NCBI RefSeq assembly: GCF_056746865.1
Contig: NZ_CM163382.1
Direction: 5' to 3' (one strand)
Length of the DNA: 64,000 nucleotides
Part shown: positions 20,316 through 29,392 of the stretch, piece after piece
Numbering within the stretch: position 1 is the first letter of the stretch
Layout of the letters: each line of letters opens with the position of its first letter
Position numbers and translations under genes: made by a program
Notes under the pieces: model-generated
Seen by the model: the letters and a program-made list of their open reading frames with translations, nothing else
Told to the model about the DNA's origin: nothing
The model's database searches: none

Positions 20316-21350
20316 TTATGAATCCAACTCATAATCTTCACCAGAACGAATTGCCCGGATAAAAGGAAGTTTTAGCAGTAATTTTTTCATACCCTCAACA
20401 TCTAATCTCTCAGTATTATGAGAGTTATAATCTTCCACTTCCGAGATACGACGGTCACCATGTTCCACATATTTACCATAGTTCAAATCGCGGAGATCTG
20501 GTGGAACACGATAATAATCACCCATATCTTCCGCTGCTATCATTTCCTCTCGGCTCAATAACGCTTCGTAAAGTTTTTCCCCGTGTCGAGTTCCAATAAT
20601 ATTGATTGGATGTTCATGGGCATTTAGCAATTCCTTAAGTGCAATGGCTAATGTTTGAATTGTTGCCGCAGGAGCTTTCTGAACGAAAATATCACCGTTA
20701 TTTCCATGCTCGAAGGCATAAAGGACCAGATCAACAGCATCCTCAAGCGTCATCATGAAACGAGTCATATTGGGATCGGTAATGGTCAATGGTTTACCAG
20801 ATTTGATTAGATCAACAAACAATGGGATGACCGATCCACGTGAAGCCATTACATTCCCATAACGTGTTCCGCAGATAACTGTTTTTGAACTATCAAGATT
20901 ACGTGATTTTGCAACAATGACTTTTTCCATCATTGCTTTAGATATGCCCATTGCATTAATAGGATATACGGCTTTATCTGTACTCAGACATACAATTCGC
21001 CTAACGCGATTAGCTATTGCAGCTTCTAGAACGTTTTCAGTACCTAAAATATTCGTTTTTACAGCTTCCATGGGGTGGAATTCGCAGGAAGGCACTTGCT
21101 TCAGGGCTGCAGCATGATAAATAAAATCAACACCTCGAGAAGCATTGAGAATACTCGAATAATCGCGAACATCACCTATATAGAACTTAAGCTTCTGATT
21201 ATTATATTTTTTCCTCATGTCATCTTGTTTTTTTTCATCCCGGGAAAAAATACGTATTTCTTTGATATCTGTATCAAGAAAACGTCTTAGAACAGCATTA
21301 CCGAAAGACCCCGTACCACCAGTAATTAACAATATTTTACCATTAAACAT
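20316..21350 (-). CDS. fnlA: UDP-GlcNAc 4,6-dehydratase/5-epimerase, FnlA/Cap5E-like
   Basis: Start trimmed to MFNGKILLITGGTGSFGNAVLRRFLD (ATG at 21350), 344 aa. Confidence 0.85.
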   Translation of the reverse strand: MFNGKILLITGGTGSFGNAVLRRFLDTDIKEIRIFSRDEKKQDDMRKKYNNQKLKFYIGDVRDYSSILNASRGVDFIYHAAALKQVPSCEFHPMEAVKTNILGTENVLEAAIANRVRRIVCLSTDKAVYPINAMGISKAMMEKVIVAKSRNLDSSKTVICGTRYGNVMASRGSVIPLFVDLIKSGKPLTITDPNMTRFMMTLEDAVDLVLYAFEHGNNGDIFVQKAPAATIQTLAIALKELLNAHEHPINIIGTRHGEKLYEALLSREEMIAAEDMGDYYRVPPDLRDLNYGKYVEHGDRRISEVEDYNSHNTERLDVEGMKKLLLKLPFIRAIRSGEDYELDS

Positions 21351-21358
21351 AATACACC

Positions 21359-22462
21359 TTATTTTAAAATAGAGAAGAACTGTGGCCAAGATGAACGACT
21401 ATCTTTTTCATAAGGCCTAAAATTGAGCTTCGAATTGCCATTTAAAACATTAAACAACGCCCTAGCCCAGCCATCTTCATCATTGTAAATTACAAAATCT
21501 ACGCCGCTATAATTCTTTAAAACATCACGGGCATAAGGAAGATCACTACTAATGATTTTTTTTCCTAAACTAGCAGCTTCGATGAGTGGTAACCCATATG
21601 ATTCTATATAGCTAGGAAAAACAATAAAAGATGCCGCCATATATTTTTTTTGCAATTTCGAGTATGAAAGAACACCGAGATAATCAATGTTTTTGCTTAG
21701 GTTATTTAATTGCACAAACTTATCAAAATTTTTGTACCTATTCTTTTCAAAAGTCACTTGGAATTTCAGATCATCTATAAAATACTTTTGCTTTAAAATA
21801 ACCAACGCCTTCAGAATGACCAAATGATTTTTATAGGTAAGTGGTGTCGCTGGATATAAGAGTGTTTTAACAGATACATCCTTATCTACATCAAATTTAG
21901 TATTATTAAATGTTTTGATATCAGGTTTTATAACAAGGACCCTTTCGGAACTAATCTTATCACATTGATCCAACACTCCTTTTTTCATCCAATTCGTTTG
22001 CACTACGATGGTTGTATTTGCATTCACATATTTAAATATAAAATAGGAATAAAAATTTTTATATAAAAAAAGTTTTACGTTATCGAACGTGATATCATTT
22101 AAAAAAGAATCAACTTTACTGAAAGGAATTGGCTGGTGCAAGTAAATAATCTGCTCATAAGGAACATTCAAACTGGAATTTTGTAGAGAAATTACTTTCT
22201 TAACGTTAATCTTATGTTCAGAGATAAACTTTCGACAACCGAACCAATCCCAATATATTCTTTTCAACCATCCTTTTGGTGTGTTTTCTATGTAAATGAT
22301 GTTATCACAGACCGGCAACTCTAATCCCGCAGATACAAACATAATATAGTCATTTGAATTTTGTGATGCATGTTTTATAAATTGCTTTAATATAGTTAAT
22401 GCACCTCCGGAGGCCAGCGCCGTCGCACTTACAACAATATAACTTTTGGACAAATCAAACAT
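21359..22462 (-). CDS. GT4-family glycosyltransferase of the O-antigen cluster
   Basis: 367 aa ORF with the C-terminal GT4 motif (FPSYIESYGLPLIEAASLGKKII); AT-rich codon usage like its neighbours. Confidence 0.7.
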   Translation of the reverse strand: MFDLSKSYIVVSATALASGGALTILKQFIKHASQNSNDYIMFVSAGLELPVCDNIIYIENTPKGWLKRIYWDWFGCRKFISEHKINVKKVISLQNSSLNVPYEQIIYLHQPIPFSKVDSFLNDITFDNVKLFLYKNFYSYFIFKYVNANTTIVVQTNWMKKGVLDQCDKISSERVLVIKPDIKTFNNTKFDVDKDVSVKTLLYPATPLTYKNHLVILKALVILKQKYFIDDLKFQVTFEKNRYKNFDKFVQLNNLSKNIDYLGVLSYSKLQKKYMAASFIVFPSYIESYGLPLIEAASLGKKIISSDLPYARDVLKNYSGVDFVIYNDEDGWARALFNVLNGNSKLNFRPYEKDSRSSWPQFFSILK

Positions 22463-22738
22463 ACAGTTCCTAAGTGGTTATCTAAAGCTTCTTATTAACA
22501 TAAATTTTCAACAAATGAAAACAGACAGAGCAAAGTACACTTCCATAGGAAGTTATCCGAATGAATGCAGGATATTATATACTACATAAGAAGCCATATC
22601 CTATCTTTCCCAAATCGAAACATTTTCTGTTCTTGCCCTCTTATTTCCAGACAGGGATTGTATCTTAAGTTAGATATATGTCCAAGCCTACCTCTTATTT
22701 TAAGATACATCTACTGTCTGGTGTTTTCGGGGGTCAAC

Positions 22739-23229
22739 TCAGATCACATTATTAAGAATCTCACCACACACAACACTATTTGCGCCAATAACTACACCAT
22801 TACCTATACACGCACCTGGTAATATTGTCACGTTTTCACCAATCCACACACGCTCTTCAATATACACAGGTGCAGATTCAAGAGACCTAGATGAAGGAAT
22901 AATAGTTGGTGAACTATGGATATCAGATTTAGAAAAAATACCATGATTATGATCACTAATAAATACTTTACTTGCTATTAATGTATCTCTACCAATAATG
23001 GCATTATTAATAGCCGCGATGTGGAACATAATCATTAATTTGAACATTTTCTCCAATAGACACTATAGCATCCATAAATGTATCACCTCCTAATACTACA
23101 CCTGATGTAAACCCTTTTCCAAAACTAACACTTCCATCTTTTCTAAGATAACATGAAAATCTAATAACCCTAACATTTGAACAAAATAAAACTTTTGTTA
23201 AGAATAATCTTTAAGAAGCCTAAGACCAC
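22739..23229 (-). pseudogene. Degraded hexapeptide-repeat acetyltransferase gene
   Basis: The only intact ORF (22739..23056) encodes hexapeptide-repeat sequence (HIAAINNAIIGRDTLIASKVFISDHNHG...IGENVTILPGACIGNGVVIGANSVV). The N-terminal part (...GKGFTSGVVLGGDTFMDAIVSIGENVQINDYV) lies upstream in a different frame, consistent with a 1-nt insertion near 23005, and has no in-frame start codon. Confidence 0.65.
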
Positions 23230-23332
23230 CATAAAGGCCATATCGTTTAATTAACTTAATTTTTTATGCACATTATTTATGCCCTGGTTAGAATATATGT
23301 TATTTACGTATTAATGATAACATAATCTACTA

Positions 23333-24562
23333 TTATATAGCCATTTTGACATTAGATTTCATCAAGATAATTTTAGCATGATATTTGCATAAAAATATTG
23401 ATGAAAATAACATAAACACATAGGGATTTATATAGCCAGCACCACGTATAAAAAGGGGGATGAAGAAACACATATAGAAACTATATGCTAAAATATACTG
23501 CGGTGGATATCTCTTATTTTTTTTGAAACGCAGATAAAATCGAAAAAAAATAAAAAGATAGAAAATGCACATTATTGCACCAATAAACCCAAACTCAGAT
23601 ATTAACTTCGAAGAAATAAATGAGCCATCGTATATATTTAACATAGGGGCATCAAGATCAGCTAAAATTTGTTGATACACTCCTACCTCCCCATTCACGC
23701 CCATTTGTTGAAAACCAATACCAAGACCATAACTTGTAATAAAATTCAAGAAAGCTCTTTCAATTCCTGAAAGATATACAAGCACTGATAAGTTCGTAGT
23801 ATTTTTAAAATCAAGCCGCGATGTATAGTAAGAAATGTCTAAATCACTTAATATCATGGAAAAAATCCATGCCCCTAAAAATATAACAATAGTTTGCCTT
23901 ATTGTTATTTTTTTCATCACAAAAACACTAATCACAATGCCTACTAACATCGTTAAGTTCTGGATACCTAACGCAATACCCAAAGATAATATATAGAGCA
24001 ATAGTACCCCCCCCCCCCTTGTATAGTATAAACAAAATGAAAAGATAGGTATGAAAACCAATGCAAATGCTGATGGTTCAGGAAAAAGAATCATACTTTT
24101 ATCATGTATAATCTCAGTTTTCTGTAAAAGAATACTTATAATGCCAATAAGGCAAAGAAATGCGAACAAATAAAAGACGGATCTCTTAAGTATTTCTTCA
24201 GAACATAACCACAAAGTCTGTGCATAACAAGAGGAGACGTATGCCATTATTAAGATGCTATACATTGAAAGTACAATTTTAAATGATAAAACCTGTTCAA
24301 TATTAAATAGCATACTTAACAGACAGTTAAAACACAACAATATGAATAATACTACTATTATTAGCAAATTATCTTTGCAAGTGTTTTTAGCCCTTAAAAA
24401 AACAAAAAGCAATATAATGGAGATTATCGTTGAAATGCTAAAATTATCAATCCCTAATGTATAAAACAAAAAATCAGGAAAAACAAGGAAAAGTAAAAAT
24501 AAAAATATAATTCTTTTTGTGCTATTTGGTTCTTCTATTCTTATGCTCATACATAATCTCAA
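23333..24562 (-). CDS. wzy: O-antigen polymerase
   Basis: 409 aa highly hydrophobic, AT-rich ORF with many predicted transmembrane segments, between glycosyltransferase genes; contains a G12 tract on the coding strand. Start uncertain (24562 or 24550). Confidence 0.7.
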   Translation of the reverse strand: MRLCMSIRIEEPNSTKRIIFLFLLFLVFPDFLFYTLGIDNFSISTIISIILLFVFLRAKNTCKDNLLIIVVLFILLCFNCLLSMLFNIEQVLSFKIVLSMYSILIMAYVSSCYAQTLWLCSEEILKRSVFYLFAFLCLIGIISILLQKTEIIHDKSMILFPEPSAFALVFIPIFSFCLYYTRGGGVLLLYILSLGIALGIQNLTMLVGIVISVFVMKKITIRQTIVIFLGAWIFSMILSDLDISYYTSRLDFKNTTNLSVLVYLSGIERAFLNFITSYGLGIGFQQMGVNGEVGVYQQILADLDAPMLNIYDGSFISSKLISEFGFIGAIMCIFYLFIFFRFYLRFKKNKRYPPQYILAYSFYMCFFIPLFIRGAGYINPYVFMLFSSIFLCKYHAKIILMKSNVKMAI

Positions 24563-26702: not shown

Positions 26703-27979
26703 CAGGCTACCCTTTTTTTCATAAGATTATTACAACGATAACTCATATAAAAAAGCATCAAAAAATCAATTATCACTCGAATTGTCCATAACCACGCCAC
26801 ACCAATAACCCCACATTCCTTTGAAATTATATATAACATTATCAAATAAGGAATAAATTCCATCATATGGATGTATGCAGTGTATTTTGCTTTTCCAAAT
26901 GCCTGTATATTGGCAAAAGAGATTTGTGAATAACAGTTAAAGATATACCCTATAAGCATAATCCGTAATATTTCGACTGAAATCCCTGCATACTCAGCCC
27001 CCATCCACAATGTTAAAATAAACTTTGCGTAGTAATATATAAATAAAACCAAAGGCAATACAATGACAGTCATTAATATATACGCTTTTTTTTGTTCTGC
27101 ATATGACGCTGTAAAACTACTTGCATGGCTTAATTTTGGAAAAACAGCTTTCCCAAGAGAGCCTGGAACTATTCCAAGCCTAGTTACCAGCTCATTAGGG
27201 ACTGTATAGAATGATATTTTTGATGCTCCCTGGATATGAGATAGAATAAATCTATCCATACTCGCTAATATAGGAGATATTATGTTACTTATAGTTACCC
27301 ACCCGCCATATCTAAATAACCGTTTTAAAACAGTTATTGAAAAAAATGAAATATCGATAGTTATTCTTTTCCTGCTCATAATGTAGCTTAACCACAAGCA
27401 TATAACTCTTGCAATAGCTACACCAATAATTGCAGAAAAAAGTGTTTGATTAATTAAAACAAATAATGCAGGCAACCCTGCAATTAAAGAATTCCCTAAA
27501 CTTTTTTGTATATTTAGGATTCCAAAATATTCCCGCCCCTCAAGCTCTGCTAATAGTATTTGCGTGACTAAGAATACAGGTATCAGAGATGATAATAATA
27601 TTAGAGACTTTATCGCATCGACGTAGTATATTGGTGACATATTTAACAGTTCAATAATATGGTCTTTAAGCAGAAACACTCCCCCGCCTCCGATACCCCC
27701 TAAAAATACCACAGCAATAATAGAAGTTACTATTATCGTATTACAATCGTCCAGTCTGTTTTTTAGTAATGCTATTTCGCGTACTACAGCTCTTGTTAAC
27801 CCAGCATCAAATATACTAGCATACCCTATAAAAATCATTGATAAAGTATACAAACCAAATAGTTCTACACCAATTTCCCTTGCAATTAATCCAAACGCTG
27901 GGATTGCAATTAATGTTGGTATAAAGTAGCCCGCAACATTCCATATACTATGTTTTAAGAGAGACATTTCAATACTCAC
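26702..27979 (-). CDS. wzx: O-antigen flippase
   Basis: 425 aa polytopic membrane protein; its stop overlaps the downstream glycosyltransferase start (ATGA). Confidence 0.75.
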   Translation of the reverse strand: MSIEMSLLKHSIWNVAGYFIPTLIAIPAFGLIAREIGVELFGLYTLSMIFIGYASIFDAGLTRAVVREIALLKNRLDDCNTIIVTSIIAVVFLGGIGGGGVFLLKDHIIELLNMSPIYYVDAIKSLILLSSLIPVFLVTQILLAELEGREYFGILNIQKSLGNSLIAGLPALFVLINQTLFSAIIGVAIARVICLWLSYIMSRKRITIDISFFSITVLKRLFRYGGWVTISNIISPILASMDRFILSHIQGASKISFYTVPNELVTRLGIVPGSLGKAVFPKLSHASSFTASYAEQKKAYILMTVIVLPLVLFIYYYAKFILTLWMGAEYAGISVEILRIMLIGYIFNCYSQISFANIQAFGKAKYTAYIHMMEFIPYLIMLYIISKECGVIGVAWLWTIRVIIDFLMLFYMSYRCNNLMKKRVA

Positions 27980-28511
27980 TTAGTTCTAATTTTTCCCCAT
28001 TTGCATCCTTATCAGACAGAGTAATCAGTGCTGTCCTTGGCCATTTAATATTAAGCAAGGGGTCATTCCAGATAATATTTCGTTCATGTGATGGAGCATA
28101 ATATTGATTCGTTTTATATAAAACTTCTGCTAAATCACTAAGTACCAAAAATCCATGAGCAAATCCTTCAGGTATCCACAACTGACGCTTGTTCTCAGCA
28201 GACAAATTCACCCCAACCCATTTCCCAAATGTACCTGACGATTTACGAATATCAACTGCTACATCAAAAACCTCACCGACCACACAACGAACTAATTTAC
28301 CTTGAGCATAAGGTTCCAGCTGATAGTGCAATCCGCGTAATACACCCTTAATTGATTTAGAATGGTTATCCTGAACAAATTCAACCTTACGCCCTACAGC
28401 CTCTTCGAAAACTTTCTGATTAAAGCTTTCCATAAAAAAACCGCGCTCATCACCAAAAACTTCCGGTTCCAAAATTAATACATCAGGAATTTCAGTTTTA
28501 ATTACATTCAT
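27969..28511 (-). CDS. rmlC: dTDP-4-dehydrorhamnose 3,5-epimerase
   Basis: 180 aa ORF (MNVIKTEIPDVLILEPEVFGDERGFFMESF...). Confidence 0.9.
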   Translation of the reverse strand: MNVIKTEIPDVLILEPEVFGDERGFFMESFNQKVFEEAVGRKVEFVQDNHSKSIKGVLRGLHYQLEPYAQGKLVRCVVGEVFDVAVDIRKSSGTFGKWVGVNLSAENKRQLWIPEGFAHGFLVLSDLAEVLYKTNQYYAPSHERNIIWNDPLLNIKWPRTALITLSDKDANGEKLELSEY

Positions 28512-28513
28512 TT

Positions 28514-29392
28514 TTAGTAACCTTTAATCATTTTTAGCAGATACTGACCATAAGCATTTTTCTTTAGTGGTTCTGCTAATACATTAACCTGCTCAGCGTC
28601 AATAAAGCCTTTACGATAAGCAATTTCTTCCGGGCAAGATACCTTTAAACCTTGTCGCTCTTCAATTGTTGCAATGAAGTTACTTGCTTCAATCAGACTT
28701 TGATGTGTCCCCGTGTCTAACCATGCATAACCACGGCCCATCATGGCAACAGATAAACGCCCCTGTTCCATATAGACACGGTTAATATCGGTAATTTCCA
28801 GTTCACCACGGGCAGAAGGCTTAAGGTTTTTCGCCATTTCCACAACGTCGTTATCATAGAAATAAAGCCCGGTTACCGCATAATTACTTTTTGGTTGTAA
28901 CGGTTTTTCTTCCAAGCTGATTGCAGTACCGTTTTTATCAAACTCAACGACACCATAGCGTTCAGGATCATTTACGTGATAGGCAAATACCGTTGCACCA
29001 CTTTCTTTGTTAACAGCGGCATCCATTAACCTCGGCAGATCGTGACCGTAAAAGATATTATCACCAAGAATCAAAGCACAATCATCACCACCAATAAACT
29101 CTTCACCGATAATAAATGCCTGCGCAAGCCCATCTGGAGTCAGTTGCACTTTGTACTGAAGATTTAGCCCCCACTGGCTACCGTCACCCAGCAGTTGTTG
29201 AAAACGAGGAGTATCCTGTGGCGTACTAATAATCAAAATATCGCGAATACCCGCCAACATCAGTGTAGAGAGCGGGTAATAGATCATCGGTTTATCATAA
29301 ATCGGTAATAGCTGTTTACTGACTGCCATAGTCACAGGATAAAGACGAGTACCAGAACCACCCGCTAAAATAATACCCTTACGCGTTTTCAT
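28514..29392 (-). CDS. rmlA: Glucose-1-phosphate thymidylyltransferase
   Basis: 292 aa ORF ([40 protein letters not shown]...). Confidence 0.95.

Follow-up and report, generated by a model that had tools for sequence, protein, structure and literature searches.

The window analyzed here, a stretch of 64,000 nt from contig NZ_CM163382.1 of assembly GCF_056746865.1, carries the O25 (O25a) O-antigen gene cluster of E. coli on its minus strand. Read along that strand, the order is rmlBDAC, wzx, two glycosyltransferase genes, wzy, a gap of 870 bp, a GT4 glycosyltransferase gene that resembles wbuH, fnlA, fnlB, fnlC, wbuB, wbuC, and gnd, with the run from fnlA to wbuC extending down to 16475. In a comparison set of 5426 complete E. 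coli genomes, the segment 22300–23500 has 34 matches of at least 99.6% identity, of which strain ABU 83972 and eleven others are 100% identical; the neighboring gene is annotated as “O25 family O-antigen polymerase” in all 34. The gap lies between the stop of wzy (23333) and the start of the glycosyltransferase gene (22462), and its coding-strand ORFs reach 105 aa at most. It is a composite: 532 bp of wbbJ remnant, a ~114-bp stub of an insertion sequence (IS), 58 bp from the end of an O4-type wzy, and 112 bp of O4-type spacer. From wzy to the first intact gene beyond the gap, the features are as follows, with coordinates in the comparison loci given in brackets (L004, O25b; L005, O4).

23333–24550, minus strand: wzy (405 aa), the last intact gene of the O25-type module common to O25b; 95.2% nucleotide identity, gap-free, to a 405-aa O25b ORF, dN/dS 0.24
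22742–23273, minus strand: wbbJ pseudogene, codons 1–179 of a 201-codon LPS O-acetyltransferase gene, in two reading frames and four segments; 93.5% nucleotide identity to O25b wbbJ (L004 7018–7554)
22628–22741, minus strand: IS2-group (IS3 family) stub of ~114 bp; both element ends match, transposase deleted
22575–22632, minus strand: O4-type wzy remnant, the last 58 bp including the TAA; aligns to the end of the annotated O4 family O-antigen polymerase (L005 5001–5058)
22463–22574, minus strand: spacer upstream of the wbuH-like gene, which came with the O4-type module according to the O4 alignment
21359–22462, minus strand: wbuH-like GT4 glycosyltransferase gene, the first intact gene of the O4-type module; 95–96% nucleotide identity to O4 clusters

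Three-frame translation of the gap reveals WbbJ-type sequence that changes between two frames. The DNA alignment to the intact 606-bp wbbJ of 426 O25b/ST131-type genomes covers 549 of 552 bases and shows 93.5% identity. The product of that gene, WP_001296213.1 (EC958_2373), has 201 aa and is annotated either as WbbJ or as “LPS biosynthesis protein.” In O25b:H4-ST131 strains the gene likewise follows directly after an O25-type wzy, and the DNA identity extends over codons 1–179; there, however, it is intact, whereas in the window it carries three frameshifts and 15 amino-acid replacements and lacks codons 180–201. Once the frame is repaired, the 179-aa translation is 89% identical to O25b WbbJ and matches the NCBIfam equivalog model for WbbJ, NF007240, over profile positions 1–172 of 192 (E = 8e-67, 224.5 bits), a match that takes in both the N-terminal region and the hexapeptide coils of the family. 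The repaired translation falls below the curated cutoff of 243 bits because its C-terminus is missing. Unrepaired, the window holds no single ORF of ~196–201 codons that exceeds the cutoff: the frame of the original start stops at codon 6, and the longest ORF, of 105 aa, scores 126 bits. Homology stops after codon 179 (NNVI), before the strand that closes the beta-helix (AGVPAKI-KKY). This AGVPAKIVK strand, absent from the remnant, is conserved in O25b WbbJ, in K-12 WbbJ, and in LacA (1kqa).

K-12 (O16) WbbJ, LacA (1kqa), and maltose O-acetyltransferase are enzymes of the same kind, trimeric left-handed beta-helix O-acetyltransferases. K-12 WbbJ has ~67–68% protein identity to O25b WbbJ, and its gene is a distant allele with only 66% DNA identity. 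In an HMMER alignment to 1kqa, the second His of the DHNHG motif, H112, aligns with His115 of LacA, the catalytic residue of that enzyme; the motif is unchanged in the remnant, and by alignment an equivalent of the catalytic His is thus retained. Even so, a WbbJ-type enzyme cannot be made from the window copy, because of its three frameshifts and the loss of its last 22 codons. By its sequence, the stretch reads as a nonfunctional relic of wbbJ, a pseudogene of the ordinary kind that implies no new biochemistry, and RefSeq already annotates the remnant as a partial acetyltransferase.

Base-by-base alignment to O25b wbbJ places four lesions. Three are frameshifts, listed here together with the ORF that remains downstream of them.

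23260–23265, minus strand: first lesion, an A6 tract after codon 3 where O25b has T-A9-C, a net change of −5 nt
23206–23207, minus strand: second lesion, a 1-nt deletion (AAAGAT-TATTC, against AAAGATATATTC in O25b)
23023–23024, minus strand: third lesion, a 1-nt insertion of an extra C (TATGTTCCACATC, against TATGTT-CACATC in O25b)
22739–23056, minus strand: residual ORF of 105 aa (102 aa if counted from the ATG at 23047) that spans WbbJ codons ~83–179; WP_014639634.1, “O-acetyltransferase” in some RefSeq records and a partial pseudogene in others

The fourth lesion is the absence of the last 22 codons, with O25b homology ending after codon 179 at 22742. The start ATG of wbbJ is kept (23273–23271), and its frame reads MCIKN before a TAA at 23258–23256, which is codon 6. 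These results refine an earlier reading of this DNA that was made from the sequence alone. Its description of a gap of about 870 bp with no long ORF and an acetyltransferase in pieces is borne out, well above anything chance would give, by the longest coding-strand ORF of 105 aa, the 93.5% nucleotide identity, and the E value of 8e-67. The acetyltransferase had been assigned the whole of 22463–23332; this holds for the 532 bp at 22742–23273, the rest being the IS stub, the O4 wzy tail, and the O4 spacer. A single extra C had been placed near 23005; the extra C exists, at 23024/23023, as one of the four lesions that the O25b alignment reveals. The N-terminal piece had been said to have no in-frame start, which is mistaken given the preserved ATG. 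Finally, the early end at 22739, within what was described as a GT-rich stretch, is indeed where the ORF stops; this end is not a product of decay, since the TGA opens the terminal repeat of the IS.

The −1 deletion, the extra C, and all three junctions are exactly alike in the window and in eight independently sequenced O25a genomes (9/9), the latter with human sources in several countries plus a chicken and a frog, spread over several continents. All 34 O25a genomes match end to end over 1201 or 1202 bp, with at most one indel. The homology, the lesions, and the junctions are thus fixed in O25a strains, and because they are common to the window and eight independent genomes, the lesions are older than the spread of the O25a cluster. 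At the tract of the first lesion, A7 is found in other O25a strains (net −4 nt), which is likewise out of frame. In O25b, codons 4–6 of wbbJ (L004 7027–7035) consist of a slippage-prone run of nine A, the run that is A6 or A7 in O25a strains. Upstream of the gene, the spacer between wzy and wbbJ (23274–23332) is 11 bp shorter than its O25b counterpart, and the ribosome-binding site that is AGGA in O25b is GGGC in the window.

Divergence from O25b gives a similar value for every serotype-specific gene on this side of the cluster: dS is ~0.11 for wbbJ, equal to that of wzx, wekA, wekB, and wzy. Since dS is uniform and the genes are collinear, wbbJ shares the history of the other O25 genes, and the common ancestor had wbbJ adjoining wzy. 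The dN/dS ratio of wbbJ against O25b is 0.35, compared with 0.18–0.29 for neighboring genes, a modest rise in a figure derived from 27 substitutions. With K-12 WbbJ as the outgroup, 12 of the 15 amino-acid replacements are derived in O25a and one in O25b, two being ambiguous; those at residues common to O25b and K-12 WbbJ are P42S, G62V, R64G, G141E, and P175L. Together, these figures point modestly to relaxed constraint on the remnant.

Several side observations concern the flanking genes. In every O25a and O25b genome inspected, wzy is flagged as “frameshifted” by PGAP (1060–1063 nt, end ~23488). The gene is nonetheless an intact, gap-free ORF of 405 aa in both O25a and O25b, with dN/dS of 0.24 between the two, and the Wzy of EC958 has been published as 405 aa (PMC3789825). 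The flag is probably an artefact of annotation against a shorter reference protein; in an NCBIfam HMM search, no NCBIfam model matched O25 Wzy. Farther upstream, the synonymous divergence between O25a and O25b is 0.46–0.62 for rfbC and rfbA (27969–29392), compared with only ~0.11 from wzx to wbbJ, so the history of the rml genes differs from that of the serotype-specific genes. On the other side of the gap, fnlA is frameshifted (1034 nt) in the RefSeq record of ABU 83972, NC_017631.1 (5151–6184 of that comparison locus, L001), and is an intact ORF of 1035 nt in the window (20316–21350); over 7.2 kb, the two sequences show a single mismatch and a single gap. Therefore, either the window belongs to a record other than NC_017631.1 or NC_017631.1 carries a 1-nt error.

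What lies at the truncated end of wbbJ? The stop codon of the residual ORF, the TGA at 22741–22739, coincides with the opening three bases of TGAGTTGACCCCCGAAAACACCAGACAG..., which is the terminal repeat of an IS2-group element in the IS3 family, and the sequence across the junction between wbbJ and the stub (22742|22741) is AATGTGATCTGAGTTGACCCCC. Over the 68 bp at 22736–22669, identity to the left end of an IS3-family element in strain PU-1 (2498–2565 of comparison locus L006) is 91%, and more than 400 E. coli records contain similar ends. The next ~36 bp, 22672–22637, match the right end of the PU-1 element (L006 3784–3821) at ~75% similarity. The left end (22741–22669) is thus joined to the right end (22672–~22628) at a TAAC that both share, with ~1.2 kb of the interior missing. 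The two arms of the stub form an inverted repeat that is 82% complementary over 22 nt. The complete PU-1 element (L006 2496–3821, about 1.33 kb) has ends that are inverted repeats of each other, and both of its termini match the stub; by comparison, the stub is only ~114 bp long and lacks the orfA/orfB transposase and a target-site duplication. No such duplication was found around the stub, the flanks being GTGATC on the wbbJ side and GAAAAT on the O4 wzy side; its absence is expected if the two flanks stem from different loci. Assignment of the stub goes to the level of the IS2 group, since its ends are only ~91% (left) and ~75% (right) similar to the sampled copies.

A promoter-like pair of hexamers, TGGACA and TACAAT with a 16-nt spacing (22684–22657, minus strand, 10/12 matches), lies across the fusion of the IS ends and points toward the wbuH-like gene. 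It is offered as a lead only. Promoter-like sites in the gap are not above chance (6, versus 7.4 expected from shuffled sequences); the gap holds no terminator-like site, and no structured RNA in it matches Rfam at E ≤ 1.

On either side of the stub, the cluster resembles two different O-antigen clusters. Homology to O25b is continuous from rfbD to 22742 and ends there. Homology to O4 (loci L005 and L015), at 95–96%, starts at 22632, inside the tail of O4 wzy, and runs through wbuC, gnd, ugd, wzz, and his. Among the 5426 genomes, the wbuH-like glycosyltransferase gene and the segment upstream of it occur only in the 34 O25a genomes and in 36 O4 genomes, and the enzyme is 29% identical to the O25b glycosyltransferase encoded at the same position. 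That O25b gene, the one after wbbJ, encodes a protein 55% identical to K-12 WbbK. A recent origin of the O25b 3′ genes from O16 was considered and is not supported: with 66% DNA identity for wbbJ and only 55–68% protein identity between the O25b 3′ genes and their O16 counterparts, there is no recent O16 donor. Within fnlA, the identity of O25a to O4 drops to 83.6% in one 500-bp bin (20500–20999), compared with 95–98% on either side, suggestive of a short recombinant segment that derives from a different fnlA allele.

There are several ways in which the fragmented gene might be explained other than as a relic. One is that the frameshifts are sequencing or assembly errors and that the acetyltransferase gene of the strain is intact. 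Homopolymer lengths are indeed error-prone, and the A-tract is A6 or A7 across records; both lengths are out of frame, however, and the last 22 codons are physically absent. The −1 deletion, the extra C, the IS junction, and the IS/O4 junction are also the same in 9/9 sequences from independent projects, and the end-to-end alignments of 34/34 O25a genomes contain at most one indel. With the same lesions and junctions present in eight other genomes, sequencing error is effectively excluded, and resequencing, through which the sequence-only reading had allowed that one continuous ORF might be restored, is not expected to restore it. The variable tract could also suggest that wbbJ is a phase-variable contingency gene that is switched by poly-A slippage, with A6 and A7 among O25a strains and A9 in the intact O25b gene. 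There is hardly any chance of this either, since two further frameshifts and the 3′ truncation stay whatever the tract length. Tract length alone does not toggle an otherwise intact ORF here, and the sampled O25b genomes all encode full-length WP_001296213.1, despite differing product names.

Another possibility is that the residual ORF encodes a working short acetyltransferase or a regulatory protein of 102–105 aa. The ORF retains the DHNHG motif, with its second His aligned to LacA His115, as well as several hexapeptide turns, and a GGAG is found 3 nt upstream of the ATG at 23047. Annotation is divided: some PGAP runs call a CDS, which is named “O-acetyltransferase” in ABU 83972, whereas most call a partial pseudogene. 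The protein would nevertheless lack ~82 N-terminal residues and the conserved C-terminal strand, and its score of 126 bits is far from the WbbJ cutoff of 243. It would also carry O25a-specific changes at conserved residues (G141E and P175L, plus R171C in the window strain), and no O-acetyl is detectable on O25A (PMC8260533). Intact homologues are 196–201 aa long, which answers the possibility, raised in the sequence-only reading, that the intact protein is naturally about 105 aa. Judged from its sequence, a function for the residual ORF is very unlikely. The gene is very probably a nonfunctional relic, truncated at an IS joint between an O25b-like and an O4-like cluster.

How might such a joint have arisen? 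The ancestor would have had the O25b gene order, wzx, wekA, wekB, wzy, wbbJ, a wbbK-like glycosyltransferase gene, and wbbL, and this order would have built Glc-(1->3)-L-Rha2Ac-(1->3)-GlcNAc at the reducing end of the repeat unit. The joint would then have been provided by an IS2-like element, which connected codon 179 of wbbJ to a point 58 bp before the end of an O4-like wzy. A role for the IS in making the joint is suggested because a single stub, lacking a target duplication, lies between two truncated genes of two clusters. The likeliest route would be recombination between two IS copies, or an IS-mediated rearrangement together with a second crossover downstream, in or beyond gnd. By this event, the 3′ end of wbbJ, the wbbK-like gene, and wbbL would have been exchanged for wbuH-fnlABC-wbuB-wbuC, and the main-chain L-Rha2Ac for L-FucNAc. 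The truncated wbbJ, its acceptor sugar gone, may then have drifted, acquiring three frameshifts, a weaker ribosome-binding site, and mostly O25a-specific replacements, and the IS would have lost its transposase through an internal deletion at the TAAC microhomology. Today, the region would be a transcribed spacer in the O25a operon. We infer this order of events, and the recombination between two IS copies as the maker of the joint, from the present arrangement. No intermediate, whether with the IS at the joint still full-length or with an O25-type wzy and intact wbbJ followed by the fnl module, was found among the 5426 complete E. coli genomes, and the extant O25b and O4 representatives are cousins of the parents rather than the parents themselves, because they are 4–6% diverged from O25a.

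The direction of change could in principle be the reverse: an O25a-like cluster may be ancestral, with O25b having arisen by import of an O16-like wbbJ-wbbK-wbbL segment and the O25a remnant being an unrelated older scar. After all, it was O25b that received the name of a variant, and its 3′ genes are similar to their O16 counterparts (PMC3789825, Table 3). This course of events is improbable on several grounds. The resemblance to O16 amounts to only 55–68% protein identity, whereas the 3′ module of O25a is 95–96% identical to O4 in DNA and brought a piece of O4 wzy with it. The wbbJ remnant of O25a is, moreover, collinear with O25b wbbJ and has diverged from it as much as the shared upstream genes have, which is not what an unrelated scar would predict. 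Derivation of O25a from an O25b-type order remains the preferred direction because it is O25a that has a recognizable recent donor (O4, at 95–96% DNA identity and with the wzy piece) and the scars of the exchange. Thus, classical O25a is likely the derived form, a chimera with an O25b-like left half, an O4-like right half, and an IS as the joint between them, and the gene order of ST131 O25b is likely the older one.

The chemistry of the two O antigens fits this proposal. Going by the O16 and O4 structures, the wbbJ/wbbK-like/wbbL module would build Glc-Rha2Ac-GlcNAc and the wbuH/fnlABC/wbuB module Glc-FucNAc-GlcNAc. The assignment of modules to structures also leans on published predictions (PMC3789825). 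O25A has L-FucNAc where O25B has L-Rha that is 2-O-acetylated, a difference of 1 Da at this second sugar of the repeat unit (PMC8260533). The O-acetyl content of O25A is below the detection limit, compared with 98% per repeat unit for O25B, at C-2 of the 3-linked rhamnose (PMC8260533). This agrees with the expectation in the sequence-only reading that the O-unit is probably not O-acetylated by this enzyme. Because the main-chain L-Rha acceptor has been replaced by L-FucNAc, acetylation would have been lost along with its substrate, beyond the decay of the gene for the enzyme. The earlier interpretation is therefore supported, yet incomplete: it missed both the IS junction that marks the module swap and the loss of the acceptor sugar. 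The replacement of L-Rha2Ac by L-FucNAc would also explain the cross-reaction between the two forms. A persisting “O25” cross-reaction would follow because both sugars are 6-deoxy-L-hexoses with an acetyl group at position 2, 1 Da apart.

The structural and genetic difference between O25A and O25B has already been published (PMC8260533; PMC3789825). Neither the IS joint of O25a nor its remnants of wbbJ and O4 wzy appeared in any paper found by full-text literature search, outside Szijarto et al. 2014 and the supplement of the review by Liu et al., and no priority is claimed. Gene remnants and IS fragments at module boundaries are an already recognized feature of E. coli O-antigen clusters (PMC7685785). 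Across 178 serogroups, that 2020 review by Liu et al. listed gene remnants in 9 clusters and mobile elements in 23, and took such features as signs of relatively recent assembly (PMC7685785). The O25a cluster is like those clusters in having a remnant gene and an IS fragment where modules of different origin meet. It differs in that both parental modules can be named, as O25b-like and O4-like, and in that both truncated genes are kept around one IS stub.

What are the implications of the remnant? Its main value is as an evolutionary breakpoint marker. The stumps of an O25b-type wbbJ and an O4-type wzy around the IS stub pinpoint the breakpoint of the swap from Rha2Ac to FucNAc, and the junctions at 22742|22741 and ~22628 are O25a-specific markers. 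The remnant also bears on annotation. RefSeq labels for the region are inconsistent, including “O-acetyltransferase,” “transferase,” “hypothetical protein,” “DapH/DapD/GlmU-related protein,” and partial pseudogene, and the acetyltransferase labels are no evidence that O25a strains O-acetylate their O antigen. Lastly, the O antigen of the pandemic ST131 clone is O25b, which is also included in ExPEC conjugate vaccines; the relation between O25a and O25b, with the O25b gene order likely the older of the two, therefore bears on serotyping and on vaccine coverage.
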